Below are positions 1 through 19,692 of a stretch of 64,000 bases of DNA, piece after piece; within the stretch, counting starts at the first letter, position 1; every line of letters begins with the position of its first letter. Both the position numbers and the translations under genes were made by a program. This DNA is from an uncultured Verrucomicrobiota bacterium. GTDB taxonomy: Bacteria > Verrucomicrobiota > Verrucomicrobiia > Methylacidiphilales > CAMAQI01. The stretch spans positions 7,915 to 71,914 of the forward strand of contig CAZKRU010000001.1 of NCBI GenBank assembly GCA_964555235.1. The letters run 5' to 3'. The notes beneath the pieces were generated by a model. That model made no database searches, was not told where the DNA came from, and saw only the letters and a list, made by a program, of their open reading frames with translations.

Positions 1-1006
1 CGTGAAGCTTTTCCCTCAGTTTTTCGGCAAAATAACGATCGATCTCCACTGAGACGGTTCCTCTCTCACCGGGATCGAGAGCGATCTTTCCCCCGTTTCT
101 GTTGGATCTACCGGTCGCATTGGGATTCTCCACCCGAGCCACTAATGCAACCGACTCATCGGTATTATTGGTGAGATCAAACTCAACATTGGTATACGCG
201 GCGAGATTCCATGCCTCGGTCGGGGCTTTGAAAGTAATATTGGGATACGGATTTTTACAACCGGTCTTGACCCGAGCCACTTTAGCGCCATTTACATCAA
301 TGATCTCAAACGTTGAATCATTCGTCGTAATGAGAGATTTCACGTCGGCATTGGAAAAGTCCAATAAGAGAGGCTTCGTCCAAGGATCCCTTTTCACCGA
401 TGGCGAAACGGCAGCCCCGACTGCCGCTGACTTGGGTGATCCGAACGCCTGCAGGCTCTTCACCACCAATGAAACGGGAGACTTCGGTTGATTTAAGAAA
501 ACGTGGATGGCTTTTACCTCCGCCGGATTCAAAACATAAGAAACTTTGGCCTTACCCTCTTTCCCTTTCCCCGCATCAACGAAATCGACCTCAATCACTC
601 GTGTTCCCCCGGGTTCGATTTCTCCAGTGCCAGTGATCCACTTTTTTTCGGTTGCCGTTCCGGCATTATCCACACGAACAGCGACCTTTACCGCCGCGCT
701 TCCCGTGTTTGTAATTTCCGCACGAACTCCGCCAAATGAGCTCAAATCCCACGATCCGGTTGCAGACTCTAATGCAATATCGGGATACTTGGAGCTGGCC
801 TGAAAATCGACCTTCAGACACTTTTTCCCTTCAACATCAACCAGGCTGACTTCCGACTCTTTGGTCTTAACCTTTTTAACATCCTCTTCCCCCTCTATCA
901 CCATCAGCGACTTCGTATTCACCTCCGATTTCGTTTCCTGAGCTGAGATCATTCCCGCGAAAACCGCGAGAAACGAGATAGAGAGAGTTATTGAGATTTT
1001 TTTCAT
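1..1006 (-). CDS. Secreted GH-A-like glycoside hydrolase paralog, array copy 1 (5' 335 codons; 3' part lies beyond window edge)
   Basis: The reverse-complement ATG at 1004-1006 opens MKKISITLSISFLAVFAGMISAQETKSEVNTKSLMVIEGEEDVKKVKTKESEVSL..., colinear with ORF 1111..3804. Nt 1-1006 are ~93% identical (by eye) to 2769-3804, with one in-frame 30-nt indel. The ORF has no stop in the window, so it is absent from the ORF track. Confidence 0.8.
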   Translation of the reverse strand, partial: MKKISITLSISFLAVFAGMISAQETKSEVNTKSLMVIEGEEDVKKVKTKESEVSLVDVEGKKCLKVDFQASSKYPDIALESATGSWDLSSFGGVRAEITNTGSAAVKVAVRVDNAGTATEKKWITGTGEIEPGGTRVIEVDFVDAGKGKEGKAKVSYVLNPAEVKAIHVFLNQPKSPVSLVVKSLQAFGSPKSAAVGAAVSPSVKRDPWTKPLLLDFSNADVKSLITTNDSTFEIIDVNGAKVARVKTGCKNPYPNITFKAPTEAWNLAAYTNVEFDLTNNTDESVALVARVENPNATGRSNRNGGKIALDPGERGTVSVEIDRYFAEKLREKLH

Positions 1007-1110
1007 AGGGAGGGCATTCAATTTAACACTGAGGCTCATTCAAAGTAATTGGTAGGCGGCCGCAGCGGCTCCCCACGCAAAATATTTCGAAAAGGATGAC
1101 ATCCTCTTTT

Positions 1111-3804
1111 TCATTTTTTGGACCGAATCGGATAAATTTCGTGTGCGACCTTACGGGAAGCTTCAATCATTTCCAAATAAGGGGTATCGGTAACACTTAA
1201 AAAACCAACCCCATGATTCTCTCCATCACTGGGGCGCCCCGTCATACTTTCATCCTTTAAGCAAAACCAATGCACTCCAACAATACTCGGATTAGAGGCG
1301 GCACCCATCACATAGCGGGAAAACTTAACCGCGCGATCCTCTGCGCTCTTTGCTTTACATAAACCAGGCCCGAATACCCCCCGATCCGTGGCTCCAAAAT
1401 GAAATTCTCCGATCATCACTGGTTTATTAATCTCCACCACTGGCTTCCACGCGGCAATCGTATCTCGATAGATGTTAAACGAGACCACGTCACAATATTC
1501 AGCAGCGATTTTAACCACTTGAGCGTTATGGTCAGCAAAACGGCATCCCAGATAGAGTTTTTTAGGCGCAACCTCTTTAATGGCTTTGCTCACGCCTTGA
1601 AAATACCGGTGTGCAATTTTCGCATTGAATGCCCTCAAGTCTTTGATTCCCGCCTCCGTTTTGGGAATCTCTTTGTATCCATGCATCTCTTCCCATTTCG
1701 AAAGTTTGACGCCCCAAGCCGCATTCAACTTTTCTATCGTCCCGTAATTCTCCTCCAAATGCTTGACTAATTCCACCTTGGAAAAATTTGCCTTCGTTCC
1801 AGCCAATGCCGCCTTGGCTTGAAAAGTGTCATCACGCCAGCTCAACTCATTATCCACAAAATACCCGATACACATCGGATCATTGAGAGTATCTCTGGTA
1901 AACCGGACGGTTGCCTTTTTCACCTCCTCATCGAATTCTGGATTAAATGGATCCGGAATCGGATTGCGGGTATTTGCCTGCCATGGCAGATTTTTGACCT
2001 GAAGAAAGACCCATCCGGTGTAAGGAATGCCACCTTTTGCCAAAACCTTGGGCTCTGACCAATTTCCAATGGTGTTAAAGCCCCAGTTCATGAGTCGTTT
2101 CGGCATCAGTCCTTCCCAGGTGCTTTCCCAATCCGGCCCGTACTTCCTCAAGAGATTGGCTTCGTAGAAGTTAAAGGTTTTGAGCTTCATTCCTTTATAA
2201 TCACCGTGCCTTGATTCCTTTCCCTCATCGAGAAACGCACCAAACTCTTTTGAATTTTTCCAGGGCTCATCCGCAAACCAACCCTCTCGTTGCTCAATCG
2301 GAGTGGCATTCTTCGTCACCACAACATCCATCCCGAGCGAGAAGAAGAGTCGACCCTCTGGATCAACCAAGTGCCATTTTCCTTCGTGCTTGGCAGTATA
2401 AAAACTTCCAGTCGCCGGGAGCTGCGGGCCATCGACCCACCCTCCAAAACGATTCCAGCTCGAAGGGCGCGGATTGGTATCAATATACTTTAACTCCGCT
2501 GCTTTCTCCCGTGCAAAATCACTCTCCGCCTTTACCTTTCCTGGCCAATCTTGATGCATGTATTGGCCGTAACGATCAACAAATGGAAAAAAGGGGTCTG
2601 GAATCACCTCGCTCTTCGGATCAAAGACCCCAGTCGCCTTGATGCTATGAATGGTGACATCATAGGATCTCGCCGGATTACTCAAAAAAATGCTGACTTG
2701 AACAATATTGCCCGGATCAATCATCGCCCCATGCGTACCTCGCCCACCCCAAGGCGTGTGATGCATCCCCTTAAGGCTTTCCCTCAGTTTTTCGGCAAAA
2801 TAACGATCGATCTCCACCGATATGCCCCCTCTTTCCCCGGGATCTAAAGCGATTTTCGCCCCATTGCTGTTAGATCTACCAGTCGCATTGGGGTTATCCA
2901 CCCGTGCCGCTAATGAAATCGACTCATCAGTATTATTGGTGAGATCAAACTCAACATTGGTATAGGCGGCGAGATTCCATGCTTCTGTCGGGGCTTTGAA
3001 AGTAATATTGGGATACGGATTTTTACACCCGGTCTTGACCCGAGCCACTTTAGTCCCATTTACATCAATGATCTCAAAGGTTGAATCGTTCGTCGTAATA
3101 AGAGATTTCACGTCGGCATCGGCAAAGTCCAATAAGAGGGGCTTCGTCCAAGGATCCCTTTTCACCGCTGGCGGGCGTTCCGTTTGTTCGACCGCCGCTT
3201 GCGAAACAGCAGACCCTGCCACCGCCACTTTGGGGGCTCCAAACGCCTGCAGGCTCTTCACCACCAATGAAACGGGCGACTTCGGTTGATTTAAGAAAAC
3301 ATGGACCGCCTTGACCTCTGCCGGATTCAAAACATGGGAGGCCTTCGCCTTCCCCTCTTTGGCCTTCCCTGGATTAACAAAATCGACCTCAATCACCTGC
3401 GTCGCTCCGGGCTCAATATCCCCACTGCCGGTAATCCACTTTTTTTCAGTTGGCGTTCCGGGGTTATCCACACGAACCGCGACCTTAACCGCAGTGCTTC
3501 CTGTATTTGTAATTTCCGCACGAACCCCGCCAAATGCGCTCAAATCCCATGACCCGGTTGCGGACTCTAGTGCAATGTCCGGATACTTCGGGCTCGCTTG
3601 AAAATCAACTTTTAGACATTTTTTTCCTCCAACATCAACCAAGCTGACTTCCGACTCTTTGGTCTTAACCTTTTTAACATCCTCTTCCCCCTCTATCACC
3701 ATCAGCGACTTCGGATTCACCTCCGGTTTCGTTTCCTGAGCGGAGATCATTCCAGTGAAAAACGTGACCACCAAGAATGAGAGAGCCGTTGAGATTTGTT
3801 TCAT
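1111..3804 (-). CDS. Secreted glycoside hydrolase-like protein, array copy 2 (2 CBM-like repeats + clan GH-A-like TIM barrel)
   Basis: 897-aa ORF with signal peptide MKQISTALSFLVVTFFTGMISAQE and two ~190-aa beta-sandwich/CBM-like repeats. The C-terminal ~500 aa carry YFVDNELSW (candidate acid/base NE) and MIGEFHFG (candidate nucleophile E), as in clan GH-A enzymes. The CAZy family (GH50/GH42-like?) cannot be assigned by eye. Confidence 0.9.
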   Translation of the reverse strand: MKQISTALSFLVVTFFTGMISAQETKPEVNPKSLMVIEGEEDVKKVKTKESEVSLVDVGGKKCLKVDFQASPKYPDIALESATGSWDLSAFGGVRAEITNTGSTAVKVAVRVDNPGTPTEKKWITGSGDIEPGATQVIEVDFVNPGKAKEGKAKASHVLNPAEVKAVHVFLNQPKSPVSLVVKSLQAFGAPKVAVAGSAVSQAAVEQTERPPAVKRDPWTKPLLLDFADADVKSLITTNDSTFEIIDVNGTKVARVKTGCKNPYPNITFKAPTEAWNLAAYTNVEFDLTNNTDESISLAARVDNPNATGRSNSNGAKIALDPGERGGISVEIDRYFAEKLRESLKGMHHTPWGGRGTHGAMIDPGNIVQVSIFLSNPARSYDVTIHSIKATGVFDPKSEVIPDPFFPFVDRYGQYMHQDWPGKVKAESDFAREKAAELKYIDTNPRPSSWNRFGGWVDGPQLPATGSFYTAKHEGKWHLVDPEGRLFFSLGMDVVVTKNATPIEQREGWFADEPWKNSKEFGAFLDEGKESRHGDYKGMKLKTFNFYEANLLRKYGPDWESTWEGLMPKRLMNWGFNTIGNWSEPKVLAKGGIPYTGWVFLQVKNLPWQANTRNPIPDPFNPEFDEEVKKATVRFTRDTLNDPMCIGYFVDNELSWRDDTFQAKAALAGTKANFSKVELVKHLEENYGTIEKLNAAWGVKLSKWEEMHGYKEIPKTEAGIKDLRAFNAKIAHRYFQGVSKAIKEVAPKKLYLGCRFADHNAQVVKIAAEYCDVVSFNIYRDTIAAWKPVVEINKPVMIGEFHFGATDRGVFGPGLCKAKSAEDRAVKFSRYVMGAASNPSIVGVHWFCLKDESMTGRPSDGENHGVGFLSVTDTPYLEMIEASRKVAHEIYPIRSKK

Positions 3805-3876
3805 AGGAGGGATTATTCGATTTAAATTACCTGACGATCGTTGGGTTAGACAGCAAACAAAGAGTCAATTCGAAGC

Positions 3877-3913
3877 ATGATCACACGATAAATCTTAGCG
3901 TGTGATCTGTCAA
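3877..3913 (-). promoter_or_regulatory. Conserved promoter/operator-like motif upstream of array copy 2
   Basis: Coding strand reads TTGACA-gatcacacgctaagatt-TATCGT-gtgatcat: a -35 box, a 17-nt spacer and a TAnnnT -10-like box. A 9-bp inverted repeat GATCACACG (3879-3887) / CGTGTGATC (3899-3907) brackets the core. The motif lies 73 nt upstream of the ATG, and the same architecture recurs at 7323, 13984, 16551 and 17775. Confidence 0.5.
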
Positions 3914-3999
3914 ATTAAATTTCATCAGTCATCGAAAGAACTCTCTTTTCCCCCAACCCTTCGAACGTCAGTCCTTGAAGTCGTCGAGGTCAGATCTGT

Positions 4000-4605
4000 C
4001 TAAAATGCCTGCAAGTTTTTGACGAGAATCGTTACCGGCTCTCCAGGCTGATTCACAAACAAATGGATCGCACTCACGGTCGTCAGATCGAGCTCGTATT
4101 GAGCTGTTTTTTTGCCCTTTTTTTTGCCTCCCTCAAAGAGGACCTCGATCATTTTGGTATCCCCGGACTCAATTTGAACCGAACCGTTGATCCATTTCTT
4201 CTCATCGGGTTTGCCCGGATTATCAACCCGGATGGCCAACTTTACAGAACCTTGTCCGCTATTCGTAACCTCTGCACGAATGCCACGGAACGCGGACAAA
4301 TCCCAACTCCCCGTCTGGGGAGGAAAGTGGACATCAGGATATTTCTCACTGACCTTGAATTCGATTTTTACCGCTTTCTGGCCATTGGATTCCGCCAGAC
4401 TTACAGAGGATTCCCTTAATTTTAATCTTGAGAGGTCCGCCTCGCTTTCAATGGTGAAAAGCGACTTCGGCTCGAGCTTCGATTCCTCCGCCAAAGCCCC
4501 TCCGAAGTGGCTCATGAGGTAAAGAAATGCAATTACAGTGGCTTGGATCATCTTATTTTGAACGTGTGACATAAATCTCCTGGGCTGCTTTTCGTGAGGC
4601 TTCAA
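4000..4605 (-). CDS. Truncated array paralog: signal peptide + first CBM-like repeat only (stand-alone module or deletion remnant)
   Basis: 201-aa ORF, roughly 55-60% identical by eye to the N-terminus of 8550..11252. Its start (MSHVQNKMIQ...) overlaps the stop of 4553..7249, exactly as at the 11233/11252 junction. It ends ...LVKNLQAF*, where full-length copies continue. Confidence 0.6.
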   Translation of the reverse strand: MKPHEKQPRRFMSHVQNKMIQATVIAFLYLMSHFGGALAEESKLEPKSLFTIESEADLSRLKLRESSVSLAESNGQKAVKIEFKVSEKYPDVHFPPQTGSWDLSAFRGIRAEVTNSGQGSVKLAIRVDNPGKPDEKKWINGSVQIESGDTKMIEVLFEGGKKKGKKTAQYELDLTTVSAIHLFVNQPGEPVTILVKNLQAF

Positions 4606-7249
4606 TCATTTCAAGATAAGGAGTGTCTGTAACACTTAAAAAACCAACCCCATAGTTCTCGCCTTTGAGCGCGTTTCCGATTGCCGGTTGATCCAGCAGA
4701 CAAAACCAATGCACTCCAACAATCGAGGGATTGGATGCCGCTCCCATCACATACCGGGAAAACTTAACGGAACGGTCCACGGCGTTTTTTGCCCGTACAA
4801 GCCCGGGCCCGAAAACACCCCGGTCAGTTGCGCCAAAGTGGAACTCGCCGATCAGGATCGGCTTTTCAATTTCAACAAGAGGCTTCCAGGCTGCAATGGT
4901 TTCCCGATAGATGTTAAAGGATACCACATCGCAATACTCTGAGGCTATTTTTTCCACTTGTGCATTGTAATCGGCGAACCGACATCCCAGATAAAGTTTT
5001 TTGGGGGCAACCTCTTTAACCGCTTTGCTAACAACTTCAAAATACCGCCGGGCGATTTTGGCGTTAAATGCCCGCAAGTCTTTAATCCCCGCTTCCGTTT
5101 GGGGAATCTCCTTGTAGCTGATCATCGCTTCCCAATTCGACAGCTTGGAGCCCCAAGCCTGGTTCAATTTTTCAATCGTGCCGTAGCTGCTCTCCAAATA
5201 CTTCACGAACTCTACCTTGGCCGGATTGTCTTTGTTGCCGGCTAATGCCGCCTTGGCTTGGAAAGTGTCATCGCGCCAGGAGAGCTCATTATCGACAAAA
5301 TAGCCGATGCACATGGGATCATTCACGGAGTCCTTCGCAAACCGCTCCACCGCCTTTTTCACCTCCGCATCGAATTCTGGATTAAATGGATCCGGAATCG
5401 GATTGCGGGTATTTGCCTGCCATGGCAGGTTTTTAACTTGGAGGAATACCCAATCAGTATAAGGAATCCCCCCTTTTTTCAATACTTTGGGCTCGGACCA
5501 GTTTCCGATGGTATTAAAGCCCCAATTCATCAGCCGCCTGGGCATCAGATCCTCCCATACATTTTCATAATCCGACCCGTATTTCCTCTGAAGATTGGCT
5601 CCGTAAAAACTGAAGGTTCTCAGACTCATCCCCTTATAATCGCCATGCTTAATCCCGTTCTCCTTGGTTTTGCCCACGAACTTGCCAAACTCTTTTTCGT
5701 TTTTCCATGGCTCTTCGGAAAACCAGCCCTCCCTCCGATCGATGGGAGTGTGATTTTTCATTTGGACAACTGCCATCCCAAGGGAGAAAAAGAGCCGTCC
5801 CTCCGGATCCACCAAGTGCCATTTCCCATTGTGCTTTGCGGTATAAAAATGACCGGTCGCATTGAGCTGTGGTCCATCCGCCCATCCCCCATACCGATTC
5901 CAATTCGAAGGTCGCGGATTGGTATCAATATATTTTAATTCCGCTGTTTTCTCACGAATAAGATCACCATCCTCCTTAACCTTGCCCGGCCAATCCTGAT
6001 GGATATATTGCCCATAGCGATCAATGAACGGAAAAAAAGGCTCTGGAATAAACTCGCTCTTGGGATCAAAGACCCCCGTCGCCTTGATGCTGTGGACGGT
6101 GATATCATAAGGTCTGGAAGGGGTATTCAAAAACAGGCTGACCTGAACAACATTGGCAGGATCAATCATGGATCCCCGTTCGCTTCTCGGCCCCCATGGG
6201 GAAAAATACATCCCCTGAAGTTTTTCCCTCATTTCTTCTGCAAAATAACGATCGATCTCCACGGATGCAATTCCGCTTTCTCCAGGATCAAGACTGATCT
6301 TTCCCCCGTTGCTGTTGGCTCGACCGGTCGCATTGGGATTATCCACACGTACCGCAAGGGTGATGGACTCATTAGAATTGTTTGTTAATCCAAACTCGAC
6401 ATGAGTATAGGCCGCAAGATTCCAGGCCCCCTCGGGAGGCTTAAAGCTGATATTTGGATAGGGACTTTTGCATCCCATTTTCACACGTATTGCCTTAGCC
6501 CCATTGACATCGACGGCGTCAAATGTTGAATCGTTCGTCGAGATGAGGGATTTTGCATTGGCATCGGCAAAGTCCAATAGGAGAGGCTTTGTCCAAGGCT
6601 CATTTTTCACCACGGGCACAATCCCCATTTGCTCGGTCACTTCTGCTGCTGCAGGTTTGACCGCCGCTTCCCTAGGCGCACCAAAGGCCTGAATGCTCTT
6701 GACCATCAAGGAAACATCATTCTTGGGCTGGCTAATAAAAATATGAACTGCCGTCACTTCTGCAGGATTCAAAATATAGGTCGCTTTTTCTTTCCCTTTC
6801 TTGGATTTTTCAACTCCCGAAAAGGAGAGCTCGATCATTCGTGTTGTCCCCGGTTCTATTTCACCACCACCGGATATAAATTTCTTATCGGTTGAAGAGG
6901 CTCCCGGATTATCCGCGCGAATGGCGATCTTAACAGCCGCTTGTCCCGGGTTTATGATTTCCGCACGAATGCCGCCATAACCACTTAGATCCCATGTCCC
7001 AGACGGGGCTGAGAATTCAACGTCCGGATACTTCGGACTAGCTTTGAAATCAACCTTTAAGACTTTCTGTCCACCAGACACCGATAAGCTGACCGCCGAC
7101 TCCCGGGTTTTAACCTTTTTAACATCCTCTTCTCCCTCTAGCGCCACCAACGATTTTGTATTTAGCTCCGGCGTCGTTTCCTGAGCGGAGATCATTCCAG
7201 TAAAAAACGTGACAACCAAGAGCGAAAGAGCCATTGAGATTTGTTTCAT
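4553..7249 (-). CDS. Secreted glycoside hydrolase-like protein, array copy 3
   Basis: 898-aa ORF with signal peptide MKQISMALSLLVVTFFTGMISAQE. The domain order matches copy 2, with YFVDNELSW and LIGEFHFG motifs. Confidence 0.9.
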   Translation of the reverse strand: MKQISMALSLLVVTFFTGMISAQETTPELNTKSLVALEGEEDVKKVKTRESAVSLSVSGGQKVLKVDFKASPKYPDVEFSAPSGTWDLSGYGGIRAEIINPGQAAVKIAIRADNPGASSTDKKFISGGGEIEPGTTRMIELSFSGVEKSKKGKEKATYILNPAEVTAVHIFISQPKNDVSLMVKSIQAFGAPREAAVKPAAAEVTEQMGIVPVVKNEPWTKPLLLDFADANAKSLISTNDSTFDAVDVNGAKAIRVKMGCKSPYPNISFKPPEGAWNLAAYTHVEFGLTNNSNESITLAVRVDNPNATGRANSNGGKISLDPGESGIASVEIDRYFAEEMREKLQGMYFSPWGPRSERGSMIDPANVVQVSLFLNTPSRPYDITVHSIKATGVFDPKSEFIPEPFFPFIDRYGQYIHQDWPGKVKEDGDLIREKTAELKYIDTNPRPSNWNRYGGWADGPQLNATGHFYTAKHNGKWHLVDPEGRLFFSLGMAVVQMKNHTPIDRREGWFSEEPWKNEKEFGKFVGKTKENGIKHGDYKGMSLRTFSFYGANLQRKYGSDYENVWEDLMPRRLMNWGFNTIGNWSEPKVLKKGGIPYTDWVFLQVKNLPWQANTRNPIPDPFNPEFDAEVKKAVERFAKDSVNDPMCIGYFVDNELSWRDDTFQAKAALAGNKDNPAKVEFVKYLESSYGTIEKLNQAWGSKLSNWEAMISYKEIPQTEAGIKDLRAFNAKIARRYFEVVSKAVKEVAPKKLYLGCRFADYNAQVEKIASEYCDVVSFNIYRETIAAWKPLVEIEKPILIGEFHFGATDRGVFGPGLVRAKNAVDRSVKFSRYVMGAASNPSIVGVHWFCLLDQPAIGNALKGENYGVGFLSVTDTPYLEMIEASRKAAQEIYVTRSK

Positions 7250-7322
7250 AGGGGGGGATTATTCGATTTAAATTACCAGACGATCGTTGAGTTAGATAGC
7301 AAACAAAGAGTCAATTCTAAGC

Positions 7323-7359
7323 ATGATCACACGATAAATCTTAGCGTGTGATCTGTCAA
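7323..7359 (-). promoter_or_regulatory. Conserved promoter/operator-like motif upstream of array copy 3
   Basis: Contains GATCACACG (7325-7333), CGTGTGATC (7345-7353) and the reverse complement of TTGACA (7354-7359). The surrounding ~135 bp (7250-7383) nearly duplicate 3805-3940. The motif lies 74 nt upstream of the ATG. Confidence 0.5.
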
Positions 7360-7493
7360 ATTAAATTTCATCAGTCATCGAAAGTCCCCACTGCTTTCCA
7401 GAAAAATCAACCCAGCCCAAACCCAAAAAGAAATAACGCCGACTTTTTCAGTAGAATCGAATCGTTAGATACGTCCCCATCGCCCGTAGCGCG

Positions 7494-8267
7494 CTAGCGC
7501 GTGTGCCGTAACAGCCAAGTGTAGAGTTCCGGGTTTGCGTAGGTCTCGGTCCACGAATTGTGATTTGCCTCGGGATAGACGGTGAGCTGCACGTCGGTCA
7601 CGGCGACTCTTTTCAGCTCCTTGACCATAAGTTCCGATTCTTCGAGCGGGACCTTCGTATCCTTGGCGCCGTGGAAGGCCCAAACGCCCAGACTCGTTAG
7701 GGCGGATTTGTGTCTATTGCGGACAATATCGAGACGCTGACCCCCACCGCAGATTGGGACGACAGCCCCGAAACGCTCGGGGTACTTCATGGCGACGCTC
7801 CATGTGCCGTAGCCGCCCATGCTGAGACCCGTGAGGTAGATTCGGTGCGGGTCGACTTTGTGCTTCGCGGCGATTTCGTCCGCGAGCACCAGCACGCCGT
7901 CGTCGTCCCACCAAGCGTCTGCGGGGCACTGCGGCGAAACGACGATGAAATTCTCCGCGAGCGCCTTGCCGGCGGCGGACAGCGGCGACTCTCGCAGGAG
8001 CTTCGGAGGCCCGTGCTTCGCGACGAGAGAAGGATCACTGCCACGTTCGCCAGCTCCGTGGAGAAATACGAGCAACGGCCACGTTTTGCTCCCGGTGGCC
8101 TCGTAGCCGGTCGGTAGCGAAAGCAGGTAGGTGTAGCCGACTTTCTTGGTGATCGTGCGCTCGAAGGAGGCGACCGGCTGCGACTCGGCGGCGGAGACCG
8201 CGAGCGCGCCGGCTAGGACAAGCAGAAATAATAGGGACGTATCCCGTTTAACTTTTGAGTTCTTCAT
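7494..8267 (-). CDS. Secreted alpha/beta-hydrolase (carboxylesterase/phospholipase-type, CE1-like)
   Basis: 257-aa ORF with a signal peptide and the motifs LVFLHGAGERG, GLSMGGYG (GxSxG), FHGAKDTKVP and ANHNSW. A GAGGGG Shine-Dalgarno-like element lies 4 nt upstream. Sampled 60-mers are 55-70% GC, against ~35-45% in neighbouring sequence. Confidence 0.85.
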   Translation of the reverse strand: MKNSKVKRDTSLLFLLVLAGALAVSAAESQPVASFERTITKKVGYTYLLSLPTGYEATGSKTWPLLVFLHGAGERGSDPSLVAKHGPPKLLRESPLSAAGKALAENFIVVSPQCPADAWWDDDGVLVLADEIAAKHKVDPHRIYLTGLSMGGYGTWSVAMKYPERFGAVVPICGGGQRLDIVRNRHKSALTSLGVWAFHGAKDTKVPLEESELMVKELKRVAVTDVQLTVYPEANHNSWTETYANPELYTWLLRHTR

Positions 8268-8509
8268 AAACCCCTCTTAACTTCGCTTCTTTCTTGATTC
8301 GTTTTCGAATGCGTTTCAGTGCTGCTGTCACCGCCCTTTCTCCGCTCATTCCACATCTTCGACTCATCTCTTCAAGCGTTTCTCCACTTCGGACACCGCT
8401 TTCTCCCACTCCCATCCTCTTTCCATCCCGCGCAAAGCCGTCTGCTCCTTCCGATTCCCTTTCGCTGCCTTTTTGACTCGCGCCGTAAATTCTTCTCCGC
8501 CGAGATAAC

Positions 8510-8569
8510 TCATGAGGAAAAAACGACCATTAAACTCGCTTGAACCATCTTATTTTGAGCGTATGACAT
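8510..8569 (-). pseudogene. 5' remnant of a further array paralog (about 20-25 codons)
   Basis: The reverse complement reads MSYAQNKMVQASLMVVFSS*, homologous to the MSNVQNKLIKASSMALLFLMGHLGG and MSHVQNKMIQATVIAFLYLMSHFGG starts. It overlaps the stop of 8550..11252 as in the other junctions. After a 1-nt frameshift the homology continues to ...LMSYLGG (~8496) and then ends. Confidence 0.55.
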
Positions 8570-11252
8570 AAATCTCCTGGGCTACTTTTCGTGAGGCTTC
8601 AATCATTTCCAGATAGGGAGTGTCCGTGACACTTAAAAAGCCGTAACCGTGATTTTCGCCTTCCAGAGTGCGTCCTGCCGCATTTTCATCCACCAACGCG
8701 AACCAATGAACACCAACAAAATTAGGATTCGCTGCGGCTCCCCTGACATAGCGGGAAAATTTTACCGCGCGATCCTCCGCATTCTTCGCCTGGACCAGCC
8801 CACCCCCGAAAACACCGCGATCTGTGGAACCAAAATGAAACTCACCAACCATGCAGGGCTTGTCAATTTCAACTGGAGGTTTCCAAGCGGCGATGGTGTC
8901 CCGATAGATATTAAACGAAACCACATCGCAGTATTCAGCGGCGATTTTTACCACTTGCTCATTGTGGTCGGCAAAACGGCACCCCAAATAGAGTTTTTTA
9001 GGGGCAACCTCTTTTACAGCTTTTCTAACACCTTCAAAATACTGCCGGGCAATCATGGCGTTGAATGCTCTCAAGTCTTTAATTCCTGCTTCCGATTGGG
9101 GGATCTCCTTGTAGCTGATCATTTCCTCCCATTTCGACAGTTTGGATCCCCAAGCCTGATTCAGTTTTTCAATCGCTCCGTAGTTTCCCTCGAGATACTT
9201 GACGAACTCGACCTTCACGTAATTGTCTTTGTTGCCGGCCAGCGCCGCCTTGGCTTGAAAAGTATCATCCCGCCAGGACAATTCATTATCAACAAAATAG
9301 CCAATACACATCGGATCATTGATCGAGTCTTTTGTGAATCGAAGAGTTGCCTTTTTTACCTCTCCAACAAATTCTGGATGAAATGGATCAGGAATCGGAT
9401 TGCGGGTATTTGCCTGCCAGGGCAGATTCTTGCACTGCAGAAATACCCAATCGGTATAAGGAATTAGGCCCTTATGGATAATTTTGGGCTCAGACCAATT
9501 TCCAATGGTGTTAAAACCCCAGTTCATCAGTCGCTTAGGCATCAAACTTTCCCAAACATTTTCCCAGTCATTCCCGTATTTCCTCTGAAGGTTGGCACTG
9601 TAAAAACTGAACGTTCTGAGTTTCATTCCCTTGTATTCTCCGTGTTTGATCCCACGTTCATCCGTCGTCGTGATGAACTGACTGAACTCTTTTTCATTTT
9701 TCCAGGGCTCATCTGCAAACCAGCCCTCCCGGCGATCGATTGGAGTGGCAATGCCCTTTAATTTCACGACGTCCATTCCTAGCGAAAAAAAGAGTTTCCC
9801 CTCGGGATCAACCAAGTGCCATTTATTGTTATGCTTTGCTGTATAAAAGGAGCCGGTCGCATTAAGTTGGGGACCCTCAGCCCATCCTCCATAACGATTC
9901 CAGTTAGAGGGACGTGGATTGGAATCAATATACTTTAGTTCCGCCTCTTTTTCACGGGCGATGTCGCCGTCCGTTTTCACCTTACCTGGCCAATCCTGGT
10001 GGATGTATTGTCCGTATTTGTCAATAAATGGAAAAAAGGGCTCTGGGATCACCTCGCCCTTGGGATCAAAGGAACCAGTGGGTTTGATGCTATGGATGGT
10101 GATATCATAAGCTCTCGCCGGGTGGCTAAGAAAAAAGCTTACTTCAATAATATTACTCGGGTCAATCATAGCTCCATGGTTTCCTCTCCCCCCCCAGGGA
10201 GTTTTATGCATCCCCTCGAGTTTCTTCCTCAGATTTTCAGCAAAATAGCGATCCATCTCAATGGATACGATTCCGCTCTCTCCCGGATCAAGACTGATTT
10301 TCCCATTGTTCCTGTTGGATTTACCCGTGGCATTGGGATTATCCACTGTGGCCAACAGCTGGATGGATTCATTCGTATTGTTGGTTAATGCAAACTCAAC
10401 ATGTGTATAGGCCGAAAGATTCCAAGCGCCAGAAGGGGCTTTGAAAACTATATTGGGATAAGGGCTCTTAAATCCCGTCTTTACCCTCACCGCCTTGGCT
10501 CCGTTGATATCAGCAATTTCAAAGACAGAGTCATTGGTTGTGATGAGCGATCTCACATCAGGAGAGGAAAAATCAACCAGCAGAGGCTTTGTCCATGGCT
10601 CATTTTTGACGGTCGACACTGCCGACTTCCGCTCTTCATCCTGAGTTGCCGCTGCCGCCACTGAATTAGCGGTTCCCCCCGCAGGGACTCCGAATGCCTG
10701 AATATTTTTCACGATGAGCACCCCATCCTCTTTCGGTTGAGTGAGAAAAACGTGAATCGCAATAATCGCGGTACGATCGAGCGGATATTGAACTTGCTTC
10801 CCTTTGCTCTCACCAAAAACCACTTCGAAAACTCGCGTTTCACCAGGAGCCAGCGTATCACCTCCCACGATCCATTTTTTCTCTGCAGGAGTTCCTTGAT
10901 TATCAACACGAAGCGAAATCTTTTCCAGGTTTTTTCCCGCATTCGTAATCTCCGTACGAATCCCCGCGTATCCACTTAAATCCCAAGTCCCCGAAGGAGG
11001 TGAAAACTGAACATCGGGATATTTCTGACTTGCCTTAAAATCGATCTTTAAACACTTTTGTCCTCCCACTTCAGAAAGACTGACGTTGGCTTCGCGCGGC
11101 TTTAGTTTTGAGAGATCTGCATCACTTTCCATGTTAAACAGAGATTTCGGCTCGGGTTTCGTCTCCACCGCAAAAGCTCCTCCGAGGTGACCCATGAGGA
11201 AAAGAAGGGCCATTGAACTCGCTTTAATCAGCTTATTTTGAACGTTTGACAT
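8550..11252 (-). CDS. Secreted glycoside hydrolase-like protein, array copy 4
   Basis: 900-aa ORF with the same architecture, including YFVDNELSW and MVGEFHFG motifs. Its start overlaps the stop of 11233..13923 by 20 nt, which suggests an operon. Confidence 0.9.
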   Translation of the reverse strand: MSNVQNKLIKASSMALLFLMGHLGGAFAVETKPEPKSLFNMESDADLSKLKPREANVSLSEVGGQKCLKIDFKASQKYPDVQFSPPSGTWDLSGYAGIRTEITNAGKNLEKISLRVDNQGTPAEKKWIVGGDTLAPGETRVFEVVFGESKGKQVQYPLDRTAIIAIHVFLTQPKEDGVLIVKNIQAFGVPAGGTANSVAAAATQDEERKSAVSTVKNEPWTKPLLVDFSSPDVRSLITTNDSVFEIADINGAKAVRVKTGFKSPYPNIVFKAPSGAWNLSAYTHVEFALTNNTNESIQLLATVDNPNATGKSNRNNGKISLDPGESGIVSIEMDRYFAENLRKKLEGMHKTPWGGRGNHGAMIDPSNIIEVSFFLSHPARAYDITIHSIKPTGSFDPKGEVIPEPFFPFIDKYGQYIHQDWPGKVKTDGDIAREKEAELKYIDSNPRPSNWNRYGGWAEGPQLNATGSFYTAKHNNKWHLVDPEGKLFFSLGMDVVKLKGIATPIDRREGWFADEPWKNEKEFSQFITTTDERGIKHGEYKGMKLRTFSFYSANLQRKYGNDWENVWESLMPKRLMNWGFNTIGNWSEPKIIHKGLIPYTDWVFLQCKNLPWQANTRNPIPDPFHPEFVGEVKKATLRFTKDSINDPMCIGYFVDNELSWRDDTFQAKAALAGNKDNYVKVEFVKYLEGNYGAIEKLNQAWGSKLSKWEEMISYKEIPQSEAGIKDLRAFNAMIARQYFEGVRKAVKEVAPKKLYLGCRFADHNEQVVKIAAEYCDVVSFNIYRDTIAAWKPPVEIDKPCMVGEFHFGSTDRGVFGGGLVQAKNAEDRAVKFSRYVRGAAANPNFVGVHWFALVDENAAGRTLEGENHGYGFLSVTDTPYLEMIEASRKVAQEIYVIRSK

Positions 11253-13923
11253 AAATCTCCTGGGCTAATTTTCGAGAGGCCTCCACCATTTCAAGATAGG
11301 GCGTATCCGTAATACTTAAAAAACCGAAACCGTAATTTTCACAATCACTGACTCGACCCGACGTGGGCTCATCCACCAAAGCAAACCAATGCGCCCCCAC
11401 GATCAGAGGATTTGACGCCGCTCCCGTCACGTAGCGCGCAAACTTCACGGCACGATCCGCGGCATCTTTTGCTTTAGCAAGACCTGGCCCGAAAACCCCT
11501 CGATCTGTGGCACCAAAATGAAACTCTCCGATTATCACTGGCTTATCAATCTCAGCGACCGGCTTCCATCCGGCAACCGTGTCGCGGTAGATGTTGAATG
11601 AAACGACATCACAGTACTCGGCCGAAATCTTAACCACCTGGGCATTGTGATCGGCAAAGCGACAGCCCAGATATAGCTTCTTGGGAGCGACTTCTTTCAT
11701 CACCTTACTGACAATCTCGAAATATTTCCGGGCGATTTTTGCATTAAAATCTCTCAAATCCTTGACCGCCGCATCCGTGGTTGGAATCTCTTTGGCTCCG
11801 AGCATTTTTTCCCATTGGGAATACGATGTTCCCCATGCCGCATTTAATTTTTCGATCTTGCCGTAGCTCGCCTGAAGTTCCTTGATCAGCTCTACTTTGA
11901 CCGGTTTTGAAGCGTCACCCACCATGGCTGCCTTCGCCTGAAACGTGTCATCGCGCCAAGAAAGTTCGTTATCAACAAAGTACCCGATACAGAATGGATC
12001 CTCGAGACTTTCACTGGTGAATTGAACCGCATTTTTTCTGATTTCTTCCTCAAATGTCGGATGAAACGGATCCGCGATGGGATTACGGGTATTCGCCTGC
12101 CATGGAAGGCTTGGCGAACGATGAAAGACCCAATGAGTGTAAGGAATTCCCCCTTTTTTCAGAATTTTCGGATCAGACCAATTTCCAATCGTATTAAAAC
12201 CCCAATTCATGAGCCGTTTGGGCATCAGGTCGCACCAAGTGTTCTCCCAATCTGCCCCATATTTTCTTTGGAGATTGGCACCGAAAAAATTAAACGAACG
12301 GATCTTCTGCCCTTTATATTCTCCATGCTGAACCGCCGTTTCTTTAACCGTCGTCACTAATTCACTAAATCCCTTTTCATGCTCCCAAGGGGCATCCGCA
12401 AACCATCCATCTCTATGATCAATTGGCGTCCCATTCTTCGTCTGCACCACATCAATCCCCATGGAAAAGAATAAACGACCTTCGGGGTCGACAAGGTGCC
12501 ACTTTCCTTCGTGCTTCGCCGTGTAGAAATGTCCGGTCGCTTTCAATTGCGGGCCATCCGCCCAACCTCCGTAACGATTCCAGCTCGAAGGGCGAGGATT
12601 CGTATTGATATATTTTAATTCAAGTGCTTTCTCACGAGCAAAATCGTCGTTCGACTTCACCTTCCCCAGCCAATCCTTGTGAATGTATTGTCCGTAACGA
12701 TCAATGAAGGGGAAAAAGGGCTCGGGAATGACCTGAGTGGATGCATCAAAAGCGCCCACCGCTTTAATGCTGTTGACCGTGAATTCGTAAGGCTTTGCAG
12801 GAGTATTTAAAAAGAGACTGACTTGCACGATATTCGAAGGATCAATCATCGGGCCGTATTGAGAACGAACGCCCCACGGGGTGTAGCGCATTCCGGCGAG
12901 CTTCTCTCTCAATTTCTCAGCAAAGTAACGATTGAAGGTAACCGTGAGTGTTCCACTCTCACCCGGATCGAGACTCAGCTTCCCTCCATTGGAGTTGGAT
13001 TTTCCTGTGGCTCCCGGATTATCGACTCGTCCATTTATCTGAAGCGACTCTTGGCTCTTGTTCGTAATACCAATCTCAATTTGATTGTAAGCTTCGAGAT
13101 TCCAACTGCCATTCGCTGCGTTGAACGCGACGTTCGGAAAAGGCTTCGCGAAGCCGGTCGTGACCCGAAGCGCCTTCTGACCATTCACCTCAATAAATTC
13201 CTGCTTTGAATCGAGACCGGTAATGCGAGAGATGGCATCAGGTTCAGCGAAATTAAAGAGCTCAGGTTTCGTCCAAGGCTCATTTTTTACGGTCGGCCCC
13301 ACTGCGGCACCCGTCCCCTTAGGCTCGGAAGCCGCTTTGACAATCGGCGCCCCCTTCTCTGCGGTGGAACCTCCGAATGCCTGAATACTTTTCACGATGA
13401 GCACCCCATCCTCTTTCGGTTGAGCGAGAAAAACGTGAATCGCAATAATCGCCGCACGGTCGAGGGCATATTGAGCTTGCTTCCCTTTGCTCTCACCAAA
13501 AATCACTTCGAAAACTCGCGTTTCTCCAGGAGCCAGCTTATCACCTCCCGTGATCCATTTTTTCTCAGCAGGAGTCCCTTGATTATCAACACGAATCGAA
13601 ATTTTTTCCAGGTTTTTGCCCGCATTCGTAATCTCCGCACGGATCCCGGCGTATCCGCTTAAATCCCAAGTCCCGGAAGGAGGCGAAAACTGAACATCGG
13701 GGTACTTCTCACTTGCCTTAAAATCGATCTTTAAATATTTTTGTCCACTCCCTTCAGAAAGACTGACACTGGCTTCACGCGGCTTTAATTTTGAGAGATC
13801 CGTATCACTTTCAACCGCGAAAAGAGATTTAATGTTGCCTTCGGGTTTCCCCTCCTGCGCTGAAACTTGAATGTCATATCCTCCCAAGAGAAGGAGTGAG
13901 AAGAGTAAGGATTTTAATTTCAT
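11233..13923 (-). CDS. Secreted glycoside hydrolase-like protein, array copy 5
   Basis: 896-aa ORF with signal peptide MKLKSLLFSLLLLGG. The first CBM-like repeat is ~88% identical to that of copy 4, while the rest is ~60-65% identical. YFVDNELSW and IIGEFHFG motifs are present. Confidence 0.9.
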   Translation of the reverse strand: MKLKSLLFSLLLLGGYDIQVSAQEGKPEGNIKSLFAVESDTDLSKLKPREASVSLSEGSGQKYLKIDFKASEKYPDVQFSPPSGTWDLSGYAGIRAEITNAGKNLEKISIRVDNQGTPAEKKWITGGDKLAPGETRVFEVIFGESKGKQAQYALDRAAIIAIHVFLAQPKEDGVLIVKSIQAFGGSTAEKGAPIVKAASEPKGTGAAVGPTVKNEPWTKPELFNFAEPDAISRITGLDSKQEFIEVNGQKALRVTTGFAKPFPNVAFNAANGSWNLEAYNQIEIGITNKSQESLQINGRVDNPGATGKSNSNGGKLSLDPGESGTLTVTFNRYFAEKLREKLAGMRYTPWGVRSQYGPMIDPSNIVQVSLFLNTPAKPYEFTVNSIKAVGAFDASTQVIPEPFFPFIDRYGQYIHKDWLGKVKSNDDFAREKALELKYINTNPRPSSWNRYGGWADGPQLKATGHFYTAKHEGKWHLVDPEGRLFFSMGIDVVQTKNGTPIDHRDGWFADAPWEHEKGFSELVTTVKETAVQHGEYKGQKIRSFNFFGANLQRKYGADWENTWCDLMPKRLMNWGFNTIGNWSDPKILKKGGIPYTHWVFHRSPSLPWQANTRNPIADPFHPTFEEEIRKNAVQFTSESLEDPFCIGYFVDNELSWRDDTFQAKAAMVGDASKPVKVELIKELQASYGKIEKLNAAWGTSYSQWEKMLGAKEIPTTDAAVKDLRDFNAKIARKYFEIVSKVMKEVAPKKLYLGCRFADHNAQVVKISAEYCDVVSFNIYRDTVAGWKPVAEIDKPVIIGEFHFGATDRGVFGPGLAKAKDAADRAVKFARYVTGAASNPLIVGAHWFALVDEPTSGRVSDCENYGFGFLSITDTPYLEMVEASRKLAQEIYVKRSK

Positions 13924-13983: not shown

Positions 13984-14020
13984 ATGATTACACGTTAAAT
14001 CTTTAAATGTGATCTGTCAA
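13984..14020 (-). promoter_or_regulatory. Conserved promoter/operator-like motif upstream of copy 5/copy 4 operon
   Basis: Coding strand reads TTGACA-gatcacatttaaagatt-TAACGT-gtaatcat, 61 nt upstream of the ATG at 13923. Confidence 0.5.
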
Positions 14021-14164: not shown

Positions 14165-14206
14165 CAACAAAATGCAACCCGCGCCCTCTTGTGAGGACGC
14201 GGGTTG
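14165..14206 (-). terminator. Rho-independent terminator-like hairpin downstream of S8 protease gene
   Basis: The stem is CAACCCGCG / CGCGGGTTG (14175-14206) with inner CCTC/GAGG pairing. On the minus strand it is followed by CATTTTGTTG. Confidence 0.55.
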
Positions 14207-16550: not shown

Positions 16551-16584
16551 ATGATCACAGGTTAAATCATTTAATCGTTCAAAG
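16551..16584 (-). promoter_or_regulatory. Conserved promoter-like motif upstream of S8 protease gene
   Basis: Coding strand reads ...gattaaatGATTTAACCTGTGATCAT, 59 nt upstream of the ATG at 16492. It shares the GATTTAACnTGTGATC core with the 17775 site and overlaps the 3' end of the SGNH gene. Confidence 0.4.
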
Positions 16585-17670
16585 ATTCGGCAAAATGCGC
16601 GTATAAAGGCCGTCCGCAAAGATTTGAGCGCCCTTGGGAGTCAGATGGACCGCATCCACTAAACTTTTTTCGGTCGTAGCAGTGATGATCTCCTCCCCAT
16701 TGACGACAAAGATATTGGCGTCACCTGCTGCTTTTCGTGCCGTTACGATCTCGGTGACCGCATTTCGATAAGGCTCAATCGTCACTCCATTTCCATTCAC
16801 AACCGTCTTCGTGTAAGTTTGGCGAATCAAAAAGATCTTCGCATCCGGATGACTCGTCCGAATCGTTCGAACATCCTCATCCAATCCCTTTTTGTAATCA
16901 GCCACACTCTTCTCCCCCTGCCAATCATTGTAGCCAATCAGATAGGTGATCATGTCAACTTTGGTCCAGTTGTTTACCAATGCGGTGATCCGGGGAGCAA
17001 TCTTACTTCCCCCACTGGCAAGATTGAAAAGCTCATATCCCAGCTTTTCCGATAAGAGAAAGGCGTAGGTCTTGTAGGCTGCCGATGACTGACCTGTTCC
17101 ATGCGTAATCGAATCCCCCAGCGCGAGGTAAACCTTCTTCTGAGGCACCACCAGCGGCACCAAAGGTTTTCCTGGGACCAGATCAATTCCTGTCAGAAAC
17201 GGATTCGACCAGCTCGGCAATACAATGTCATAGGTCGACTCACCCGCCACCGCACTTGTCAGCGACACGGTCATCTCATGCTGTGTGTTGGGAAAGTTGA
17301 ATGCTTGGAGCCAGACGCCATTCACATAAACCCCAAAACTTGAACCTTTATTCACTTCGCCAGCGATCGTCTTAAAATTGACGTTGATCGTCGGACTGGC
17401 AGTGCGAAAGAGAATCCGAACCCCCGAGGTCGTTCTCGCACGGGTTCCAAATGCCTGAAGCTGTCCAACCGGGATCGAAAGAATCTCTTCGGGCATCCGA
17501 AGAAACTCGACCCCCAAGGCGTCATTGACTGCAAACTTCGAACCCTGAATCAAAATGTTGGGATCCGTCGGTGCGACAGAGACCAAACTCTGAGCCATCC
17601 CGTAAAACGGGGTCAATGCTAAAAAGAGAATCGCTACCATACTACGTTTAAGGATCGATTGTATTTTCAT
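16579..17670 (-). CDS. Secreted SGNH/GDSL hydrolase (CE2-like esterase architecture)
   Basis: 363 aa with a signal peptide and an N-terminal beta-sandwich. LALGDSITHG supplies the block I Ser and DAVHLTPKG the block V DxxH. Confidence 0.85.
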   Translation of the reverse strand: MKIQSILKRSMVAILFLALTPFYGMAQSLVSVAPTDPNILIQGSKFAVNDALGVEFLRMPEEILSIPVGQLQAFGTRARTTSGVRILFRTASPTINVNFKTIAGEVNKGSSFGVYVNGVWLQAFNFPNTQHEMTVSLTSAVAGESTYDIVLPSWSNPFLTGIDLVPGKPLVPLVVPQKKVYLALGDSITHGTGQSSAAYKTYAFLLSEKLGYELFNLASGGSKIAPRITALVNNWTKVDMITYLIGYNDWQGEKSVADYKKGLDEDVRTIRTSHPDAKIFLIRQTYTKTVVNGNGVTIEPYRNAVTEIVTARKAAGDANIFVVNGEEIITATTEKSLVDAVHLTPKGAQIFADGLYTRILPNL

Positions 17671-17774: not shown

Positions 17775-17811
17775 ACGATCACAGGTTAAATCATTAAATA
17801 ATCTTCGTCAA
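17775..17811 (-). promoter_or_regulatory. Conserved promoter-like motif upstream of SGNH hydrolase gene
   Basis: Coding strand reads TTGACG-aagattatttaatgatt-TAACCT-gtgatcgt, 105 nt upstream of the ATG at 17670. Confidence 0.45.
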
Positions 17812-18156: not shown

Positions 18157-18198
18157 AAATTCCAAAAACGATCCCCCGTACTGGCAATTCTACTGGCA
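18157..18198. repeat. 42-bp repeat shared with the integrase-proximal arm of the island (contains TACTGGCA-N4-TACTGGCA)
   Basis: aaattccaaaaacgatcccccgtactggcaattctactggca matches 58136-58177 at 40/42 positions. The flanks are unrelated on both sides. Confidence 0.65.
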
Positions 18199-18261
18199 CG
18201 AGCCCGATACCGTAGGAGTTACAAAAAATCATTATTTCCGTCAGCACCATAAGTTCAGATA

Positions 18262-18870: not shown

Positions 18871-19072
18871 CCCAATGTTTTTCTTGCTTCATACGCACCT
18901 GTCGAGTAGGCGCCTCAGGAAACCGCTTGGGATTTGGAAAATCATTAAGGGCAATCACCCAAAAAGCAGAGGACTGGCGATCCCACAATCCAATATGGGA
19001 ATTGCGCCCTTCCCCTCGATACCAAACTCCATCCTCCAGAGCTTCCATCGAAAAATATGTCTCGGTTGCCAT
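18833..19072 (-). CDS. Small protein of unknown function coupled to NTase gene, copy A
   Basis: 79-aa ORF (MATETYFSMEALEDGVWYRGEGRNSHIGLWD...) tightly coupled to the downstream NTase gene. Both cassette copies are identical at nucleotide level. No family is recognisable by eye. Confidence 0.6.
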   Translation of the reverse strand: MATETYFSMEALEDGVWYRGEGRNSHIGLWDRQSSAFWVIALNDFPNPKRFPEAPTRQVRMKQEKHWDVDGSFKPVERV

Positions 19073-19484: not shown

Positions 19485-19496
19485 GTAAATAAAAAA

Positions 19497-19629: not shown

Positions 19630-19692
19630 CGAACCCGATGCCGCAGGAGTTACGAAAAATTATTATTCCAGTCATCACCATAAGTTCAGAGA

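Follow-up and report, generated by a model that had tools for sequence, protein, structure and literature searches.

The window analysed here, a stretch of 64 kb from a contig of an uncultured Verrucomicrobiota bacterium, contains at its left end a tandem array of genes of glycoside hydrolase (GH) family 50. Five intact paralogs and two remnants were identified within 14 kb from the list of open reading frames (ORFs) and by homology, all of them head to tail on the minus strand. The full copies were designated c0 to c4 and the truncated copy tr. The features of the array, in which CBM stands for carbohydrate-binding module and lengths of proteins are given in amino acids (aa), are as follows:

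1 to 1006, minus strand: c0, a GH50 gene for 887 aa that crosses the window edge, with its first 335 codons inside
1040 to 1102, minus strand: 20-codon ORF (MSSFSKYFAWGAAAAAYQLL, then stop) in the spacer between c1 and c0, a GH1 relic left from the 5' end of the gene
1111 to 3804, minus strand: c1, an 897-aa secreted GH50 protein (predicted), proposed acid/base E653 and nucleophile E800
4000 to 4572, minus strand: tr, the truncated copy, 190 aa, signal peptide and CBM-like domain a only
4553 to 7249, minus strand: c2, an 898-aa GH50 protein with Asn at the Arg857 position (c1 numbering)
7494 to 8267, minus strand: esterase-like alpha/beta-hydrolase of 257 aa, within the array, with the stub on one side and the c2 promoter on the other
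8510 to 8569, minus strand: stub, an exact 19-codon ORF (MSYAQNKMVQASLMVVFSS, then stop) overlapping the end of c3
8550 to 11252, minus strand: c3, a 900-aa GH50 protein; its ATG overlaps the final 20 nucleotides (nt) of c4, with AGGAG 5 nt upstream
11233 to 13923, minus strand: c4, an 896-aa GH50 protein, the most divergent copy (64% identity to c1)

The five long paralogs listed in the initial annotation, the first of them running out of the window, are all present with these limits. The c0 fragment (335 aa) is the exact N-terminus of protein P0002 (887 aa), encoded on the same 122,088-bp source contig, and since it is the prefix of a full-length product, the array has five intact copies. 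Copies c1 to c4 are exact matches to P0001, P0003, P0004 and P0005, which together with P0002 are all located on one NCBI contig. Amino acid identity to c1 is 75% for c2 and 71% for c3; for c0 it is 86% over the 335-aa fragment and 88–89% for full-length P0002.

Both remnants are also real. The 201-aa ORF described for the truncated copy spans positions 4000 to 4605, and the homologous start is the ATG at 4572 (MSHVQNK...), which gives 190 aa. This ATG overlaps the end of c2 and has AGGAG 5 nt upstream, and tr ends exactly at the boundary of the first beta-sandwich. Against the Pfam family Agarase_CBM (PF17992) it gave E 1.7e-5 and 24.9 bits, under the curated threshold (26.3 bits). Either tr is a relic, or it is a CBM-like protein that stands alone. 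A 172-aa gene without Pfam match (19313–19831, minus strand) was found in L004, one of the single-copy relative loci, as a stand-alone homolog of CBM-like domain a (tblastn E 4e-11), which suggests that tr could be a working stand-alone binding protein. The stub, given earlier as about 20 codons, has exactly 19; it is homologous to the starts of c3 and tr, and homology to other copies ends about 75 nt past its ATG. The hydrolase gene at 7494–8267 matched Pfam Peptidase_S9, Abhydrolase_2 and DLH and its product has a signal-peptide-like N-terminus. As a candidate for the conserved esterase partner of the relatives' GH50 genes it was rejected, the similarity being not significant (E 0.86).

Family, catalytic residues and domain architecture

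The array proteins are members of GH50, in clan GH-A, and this family assignment is firm. A phmmer search of the PDB with c1 matched residues 403–894 to Aga50D (4bq2, E 4.7e-93), AgWH50C (5z6p, 3.7e-91) and PfGH50B (6xj9, 6.1e-90), and BpGH50 (5t3b) was far weaker. In Pfam, the full copies gave Agarase_CBM and a weak GH42 match; E values for PF17992 ranged from 1.5e-10 to 3.7e-9 for c1 to c3, and c4 was sub-threshold. The NCBIfam search of the GH50 proteins gave no match. The initial annotation had proposed a GH50/GH42-like, possibly agarase-like polysaccharidase: family and fold of GH50 hold, but agarase is unsafe as a statement of substrate.

Residue E653 of c1, in the motif YFVDNELSW, aligns with the sole position at which the deposited entries 4bq2 and 4bq4 disagree (E to Q), a difference that we take to be the E534Q acid/base mutant of Aga50D. 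Residue E800, in the motif IGEFHFG, aligns with the position matching Aga50D Glu695 by residue count in the phmmer alignment; this and the other Aga50D correspondences (Arg752 etc.) were counted by hand from the sequence alignment of c1 with the PDB entries. Glu534 and Glu695 form the catalytic pair of Aga50D (PMC11079163). Across 71 aligned homologs, N652, E653 and E800 do not vary, and the earlier proposal that the NE motif and the later E are the acid/base and nucleophile of a clan GH-A enzyme agrees with these positions. The acid/base would be the NE-motif Glu after strand 4, and the nucleophile the GEFH-motif Glu after strand 7.

Structure prediction led to the same family. The AlphaFold2 model of c1 was confident (pLDDT 91.4, pTM 0.79), the poorly defined parts being the signal peptide, the loop 147–155 and the inter-domain linker 194–207. 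In this model, E653 is located just after strand 645–650 and E800 ends strand 796–801, the strand-4/strand-7 arrangement of clan GH-A. Foldseek comparison of the model with the PDB gave only GH50 structures in ranks 1 to 17 (4bq2-5, 5z6p, 6xj9 and 5t3b); the top 15 were GH50 agarases, with E from about 1e-52 to 1e-56, followed by GH2 at about 1e-13. The match to Aga50D had E 2e-56, a TM score of 0.70 on the target and about 27% identity.

Other typical GH50 active-site residues are Asn533, Phe742, Arg752 and Glu757 of Aga50D (PMC11079163). The equivalents of N533, E534, E695, F742, R752 and E757 are present in c0, c1, c3 and c4. Copy c2 has Asn at its residue 859 (Arg857 in c1 numbering), where 98% of the other homologs have Arg; by residue count, the Arg lost corresponds to Aga50D Arg752, one of the listed active-site residues (PMC11079163).

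The layout of c1 comprises a signal peptide (about 1–22), CBM-like domain a (about 28–192), a linker, CBM-like domain b (about 216–396) and a (beta/alpha)8 barrel (about 400–897). Signal-peptide-like N-termini, two beta-sandwiches and the YFVDNELSW and IGEFHFG motifs are present in every full copy, as had been described. Read from the sequence, the N-termini are organised like Sec signal peptides (charged, hydrophobic and A-x-A parts), without a lipobox cysteine, and the proteins are predicted to be secreted via a Sec-type signal peptide. By hhalign, sandwiches a and b are homologs (probability 99.7%, E 1.6e-26, 24% identity). Most homologs have about 700 aa, cover 75% of the query and are devoid of the first sandwich; the second sandwich is the one common to all GH50 agarase structures and the first is an extra internal duplicate. 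At R301 (c1 numbering), in CBM-like domain b, c3 alone has Thr, and every homolog outside the array has Arg.

Origin, selection and regulation of the array

Neighbour-joining trees were constructed, one for each of the three domains. The five copies were monophyletic in all of them, apart from the nearest database relatives P0006–P0011 (50–59% identity). The loci of the double-sandwich relatives (L003, L004, L008/L009, L014 and L015) contain one copy each, as checked by tblastn; L003 is a locus of a Chthoniobacterales metagenome-assembled genome (MAG), and among named relatives, MAGs of Chthoniobacterales and Opitutaceae are nearest. In the L007 genome, two GH50 genes of the single-sandwich type stand in tandem. 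When genomes and metagenomes were scanned with c1 as query, distant relatives only were returned (36–39% identity). Monophyly of the copies, together with single-copy relatives, supports the lineage-specific amplification that had been proposed from the sequence, while the unusual scale attributed to it was overstated, given that Vibrio arrays of four and three genes have been published (PMC7326809).

Synonymous divergence (dS, Nei–Gojobori) was above 1.2 or saturated for most copy pairs, the youngest pair being c0/c1 (dS 0.3–0.6). The ratio of nonsynonymous divergence (dN) to dS ranged from 0.06 to 0.27 across the three structural domains and was higher only in very short leader and linker segments; dN of the sandwiches was about double that of the barrel. 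Saturated dS with such ratios indicates that most of the duplications are old, not recent, and that the genes have been maintained by purifying selection.

That only one gene is working, the other four being redundant and drifting, would agree with the truncated copy and two short stubs, which show that copies can be lost; besides, c2 has lost its nearly invariant Arg and c3 has Thr instead of Arg R301 in CBM-like domain b. On the other hand, all five ORFs are intact despite saturated dS, the dN/dS ratios of the three structural domains are low, and only 13 deviations in total were counted over the five proteins at positions at least 90% conserved in the family. Such decay is considered very improbable.

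The tree topology of the copies changes between domains, and two tracts of raised identity were detected. In the sliding-window comparison of c3 (10680–11132) with c4 (13363–13815), identity in CBM-like domain a is 90% over 453 nt, versus 55–65% elsewhere. Between c1 (3572–3949) and c2 (7017–7395) it averages 85%, with 90–100% in the upstream part, versus about 65–75% elsewhere; this tract covers the upstream region and about the first 230 nt of coding sequence. Both are read as candidate gene conversion tracts, and promoter selection could contribute to the c1/c2 identity.

The junctions c4–c3, c3–stub and c2–tr share the sequence ATTTATGTCAnACGyTCAAAATAA, in which the upstream stop codon overlaps the next ATG; AGGAG is located 5 nt before this ATG, within conserved AQEIY codons. 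The c1–c0 spacer contains a different relic. Window bases 1049–1088 match the first 40 nt of four independent Logan contigs (L016–L019) at 39 of 40 positions; there, a complete GH1 gene (PF00232, E 4e-143) starts with this sequence, and sulfatase P0253 and two more sulfatases come after it. All four contigs break at the same base. In SRR12816580, SRR12816583 and SRR12822860 a NIF3-like protein identical to that of the window was found, so the Logan samples contain the same organism, and P0253 is recorded on the 122,088-bp source contig. Outside this organism, the best matches of the NIF3-like protein belong to mixed phyla, with about 54% identity, and say little on taxonomy. The ATG codons of c0 and c1 are preceded by similar sequence over the last 25 nt or so; from this and the GH1 relic, the unit duplicated to give c1 and c0 would begin shortly upstream of the start codon and end about 24 codons inside the GH1 gene, the relic marking the right-hand breakpoint.

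The same region bears on whether the copy number is an artefact of assembly, through the collapse or expansion of repeats or through chimeric joining. The source contig seems to be a draft, and the four short-read Logan assemblies break at one point beside repeated GH1 5' sequence, as in a region that is hard to assemble. However, the copies differ by 11–36% in protein and mostly by 25–40% in DNA, with about 130 nt as the longest near-identical stretch; with this divergence assemblers would not confuse them, and an artefact is very unlikely. Every copy is also an intact ORF under purifying selection, and the junctions carry distinct, biologically sensible relics, which makes this explanation scarcely credible.

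According to the proposed mechanism, an ancestral single unit (promoter/operator, GH50 gene and downstream genes) would have been multiplied in place by successive duplications through unequal recombination. The junctions would keep its relics, namely the three joints with overlapping stop and ATG, the truncated copy, the 19-codon stub and the GH1 5' fragment, and occasional gene conversion would have homogenised the promoter-leader segment of c1/c2 and one CBM-like domain of c3/c4.

Promoter-like sites and associated features upstream of the copies and further along the minus strand are the following:

3879 to 3913, minus strand: promoter-like site of c1, TTGACA-N17-TATCGT, whose -10 hexamer is overlapped by the 16-bp palindrome GATTTATCGTGTGATC
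7325 to 7359, minus strand: promoter-like site and palindrome of c2, identical to the c1 site
13986 to 14020, minus strand: promoter-like site of c4, TTGACA and the palindrome GATTTAACGTGTAATC
14175 to 14206, minus strand: strong terminator-like hairpin (14 base pairs, of which 10 are G-C) with a T-rich tail after it, separating the S8 gene from the c4 promoter
14270 to 16492, minus strand: S8 subtilase gene, with the 16-bp palindrome upstream at 16553–16568
16579 to 17670, minus strand: GDSL/SGNH esterase gene, with TTGACG and the palindrome upstream at 17777–17792

Upstream of c1, c2 and c4, TTGACA is followed after 13 nt by a 16-bp imperfect palindrome, GATTTAWCGTGTRATC; the GDSL esterase gene (after TTGACG, in the same register) and the S8 protease gene are preceded by the same palindrome, GATTTAACCTGTGATC. 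The five occurrences of the palindrome, GATTTAWCSTGTRATC, at 3879–3894, 7325–7340, 13986–14001, 16553–16568 and 17777–17792, are all intergenic and on the minus strand, and four of the five sit exactly 13 nt after TTGACR. The long pattern of promoter plus palindrome had no match in 100 shuffles; for the loose palindrome pattern, the chance expectation of about 0.1 is our own estimate. Among the relatives, the single GH50 genes of L003 and L004 have similar GATTWAA..TTWAATC palindromes upstream, located after TTGACA, and L008 has a similar palindrome upstream of its GH50 gene, without a clear TTGACA. LacI-family genes are located a few genes from GH50 in L004, L007, L008 and L014. A LacI-family gene is also present in the window (37308–38381), and the palindrome motif was not found at this gene itself.

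Transcription would start at three near-identical promoter-like sites, each overlapped by the 16-bp palindrome. No promoter of its own was found upstream of c3, with promoter-like sites seen at c1, c2 and c4, and from the overlapping codons c3 and tr look translationally coupled to the preceding gene. As the hairpin parts the S8 gene from the c4 promoter, the likely units are c4–c3, c2–tr, and c1 reading through into c0; the first perhaps extends into the esterase gene at 7494–8267.

Substrate of the array proteins

The gene context and a loop of the barrel bear on the substrate. An orthologous S1_8-type sulfatase is encoded directly downstream of GH50 in four of the five relatives' loci and nearby in the fifth. 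These partner sulfatases are 55–71% identical among relatives, and P0253 is the ortholog on the source contig, behind the GH1 gene. In the PDB they are closest to S1_8 sulfatases acting in the lambda-carrageenan pathway (E 8e-65). Those S1_8 enzymes that have been characterised act as 2-O-sulfatases or as N-sulfoglucosamine sulfohydrolases (PMC12549532). The GDSL esterase at 16579–17670 is 42% identical, over its full length, to the product of a GDSL gene near GH50 in L008, and the BD-FAE-type esterase at 43731–44543 is 42% identical to the GH50-partner esterase of relatives. S8 subtilases with fervidolysin-type prodomains are encoded at two places among the carbohydrate genes (14270–16492 and 46721–49576, minus strand), and the one carrying the GH50-type palindrome hints that the target material has protein plus glycan.

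The loop has the sequence KLPWQxGTRNxxxDPF in P0001–P0025 and P0027 (down to about 46% identity) and GSxGYWGKFxDVF in more distant GH50 proteins; the corresponding stretch of Aga50D is GADFWGAMPDVFDP. In the c1 model it is located between strand 595–599 and helix 624–636 (beta3-alpha3), which would place it on the catalytic face of the barrel.

As a joint explanation covering origin, regulation and substrate, the array is best regarded, with good but not full confidence, as an old tandem family of secreted retaining GH50 beta-glycoside hydrolases grown in place. To judge from sequence and context, the substrate is most likely a sulfated, possibly acetylated, beta-linked extracellular polysaccharide; a galactan type is most likely, and this is the least certain part. 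The paralogs probably cover structural variants of the polysaccharide via their diverged binding domains.

Several observations weigh against this explanation. The family also contains the beta-1,3-glucanases PaBglu50A and Fsa16295Glu, a beta-galactosidase (VadG925), and also beta-glucuronidases (PMC11079163; bioRxiv 10.64898/2026.05.19.726164), and since GH50 is polyspecific, membership does not fix the substrate and those activities may also apply here. No GH117- or GH86-like gene was detected in Pfam scans of 31 further long ORFs of the window, the two GH16 genes of the window are closest to laminarinases and not of the agarase type, and the product of an enolase-superfamily gene (42563–43723) matched 3ddm at E 1.7e-129 versus E 1e-32 for the cycloisomerase 5xd7. 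An assignment of this gene as 3,6-anhydro-L-galactonate cycloisomerase was considered and is unsupported, 3ddm being far closer. An agar pathway is therefore not evident in the 64-kb window. Furthermore, the order beyond the window edge, with c0 followed by GH1 and sulfatases, is deduced from other assemblies of the same organism, and the palindrome, which may be a putative LacI-type repressor site of a small regulon, is so read from the position of the motif.

GH50 has long been treated as an agarase family. Under this interpretation the five genes would encode true beta-agarases (exo- or endo-acting, releasing neoagaro-oligosaccharides from agarose or porphyran), with the array at the heart of an agarolytic system. 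In its favour, every strong match in the PDB, in sequence and in fold alike, is a characterised agarase, the Agarase_CBM matches of Pfam point the same way, the six active-site residues equivalent to those of Aga50D are present in four of the five copies, sulfatases as needed for sulfated agars are encoded nearby, and the published tandem GH50 arrays are agarases (PMC7326809). The same six residues, however, are also conserved in the beta-1,3-glucanase Fsa16295Glu (PMC11079163), so that they do not discriminate an agarase, and the clade has KLPWQxGTRNxxxDPF in place of the GSxGYWGKFxDVF loop. Nor were GH117, GH86, agarase-type GH16 or cycloisomerase-type enolase genes found among the scanned ORFs of the window. 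Agar and porphyran are mainly 6-O-sulfated. The sulfate attacked by known S1_8 sulfatases is, in contrast, 2-O- or N-linked (PMC12549532). True agarase activity is thus regarded as rather unlikely; an agar-type galactan is one candidate among several, and agarase is not established.

A non-agarase GH50 activity, as endo-beta-1,3-glucanase, beta-galactosidase or beta-glucuronidase, would agree with the documented polyspecificity of the family (PMC11079163; bioRxiv 10.64898/2026.05.19.726164), the altered active-site loop, the two laminarinase-like GH16 genes within the window and the GH1 gene that follows the array in other assemblies of the organism. But the GH16 genes are about 20 kb off and without the palindrome, and the tight, conserved pairing with a sulfatase is unexpected for laminarin or curdlan. 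This activity is likewise given a low probability.

It is tentatively possible, too, that the double-CBM GH50 clade of Verrucomicrobiota-like genomes, with the KLPWQxGTRN loop and with constant S1_8-type sulfatase and acetyl-esterase-like partners, is no agarase group and has a new specificity, for a 2-O-sulfated acetylated beta-glycan, the paralogs splitting variants of the polymer among them and tr being kept as a secreted binding protein. If so, the division would be achieved via the fast-evolving binding domains and changes such as the Arg-to-Asn replacement of c2.

Other features of the window and comparison with known systems

A further gene, taken in the initial annotation as an eighth relative, belongs to GH50 but is distant, of different architecture and not a member of the array:

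53558 to 55804, minus strand: distant GH50 paralog of 748 aa with a C-terminal CBM9, outside the array (6xj9 E 1.6e-47)

In the catalytic domain its product shares only about 27% identity with c1; the N-terminal sandwiches are absent, and it has CBM9 instead. A weak phage-integrase-family gene (56966–58060, minus strand) adjoins tRNA-Cys (58220–58292, minus strand), and this site could be the edge of an integrated island holding the GH50-CBM9 gene. At 44559–46613 (minus strand), adjoining the BD-FAE partner-type esterase gene, a 684-aa protein is encoded with a CBM4_9 domain and a weak GH42/DUF4434-like barrel match. It was rejected as another GH50, being without significant PDB sequence match or tblastn match to c1, and could represent a clan GH-A family not yet described.

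About 950 bp of sequence occur twice, at about 18170–19120 and 19601–20551, 1431 bp apart, with 84–100% identity. Each copy contains a 202-aa DUF6036 nucleotidyltransferase-like gene whose start is overlapped by a 79-aa ORF identical in both, and the repeats may be a duplicated toxin-antitoxin-like pair. Positions 23226–32780 (minus strand) comprise a run of secretion and surface genes, which encode an autotransporter of 1154 aa, three prepilin-type N-methyl proteins and a protein of 1271 aa without Pfam match (27489–31304).

The array is a real but fairly ordinary gene-family expansion, since tandem GH50 arrays are already known, and in itself it answers no long-standing question. It is a clean, well-preserved example of the in-place growth of a carbohydrate-active gene family, in which the duplication joints, a conversion-homogenised promoter, one truncated relic and two stub relics are still readable. 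It also draws attention to an uncharacterised GH50 branch, widespread in Planctomycetota, Verrucomicrobiota and related groups, with an altered loop and a conserved sulfatase partner. Routine annotation of GH50 genes as agarase or beta-galactosidase in genomes and metagenomes may mislead carbon-cycle inferences.

Compared with Aga50D of Saccharophagus degradans (a GH50 exo-beta-agarase, PDB 4BQ2-4BQ5), AgWH50C (5Z6P) and PfGH50B (6XJ9), the array proteins have the same fold, with a CBM-like sandwich packed on the barrel. The NE and GEFH glutamates align with those of Aga50D, and equivalents of its N533, F742, R752 and E757 occur in four of the five copies; the likeness is by sequence and model. 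They differ from Aga50D in the extra N-terminal CBM-like domain and the different beta3-alpha3 loop, and the partners of array-type genes are an S1_8-type sulfatase, esterases and GH1, not GH117, GH86 and an anhydrogalactose pathway. With the non-agarase GH50 enzymes (PaBglu50A, Fsa16295Glu, VadG925 and beta-glucuronidases) they share family and catalytic residues, by published description (PMC11079163; bioRxiv 10.64898/2026.05.19.726164); Fsa16295Glu, unlike the array proteins, is without any CBM-like domain.

Tandem GH50 arrays of four genes in Vibrio astriarenae HN897 and of three in Vibrio sp. EJY3 have been described (PMC7326809), and agarolytic clusters of Cellvibrio contain three GH50 genes (PMC6535462). 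Taking a tandem array as at least three adjacent same-strand GH50 genes related by duplication, the genes studied here form one. The Vibrio arrays are likewise secreted head-to-tail GH50 paralogs at one locus, read as products of gene duplication (PMC7326809). The present array differs from them in its five intact copies and two remnants, in identities of 64–89% versus 34–48% in Vibrio, and in being monophyletic, with two CBM-like domains, conversion tracts, duplicated promoter/operator modules and readable junction relics; its nearest named homologs are from Verrucomicrobiota MAGs.

Close counterparts are also the single-copy double-CBM GH50 genes of Chthoniobacterales-like MAGs (P0006–P0011; L003, L004, L008, L014 and L015), whose products have the same architecture and loop at 50–59% identity. 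They share with the array the S1_8-type sulfatase, the BD-FAE and GDSL esterases and a LacI-family regulator and, in L003 and L004, similar TTGACA-palindrome sites. The relatives have one gene per locus, whereas the lineage of the window multiplied the gene at least seven times.

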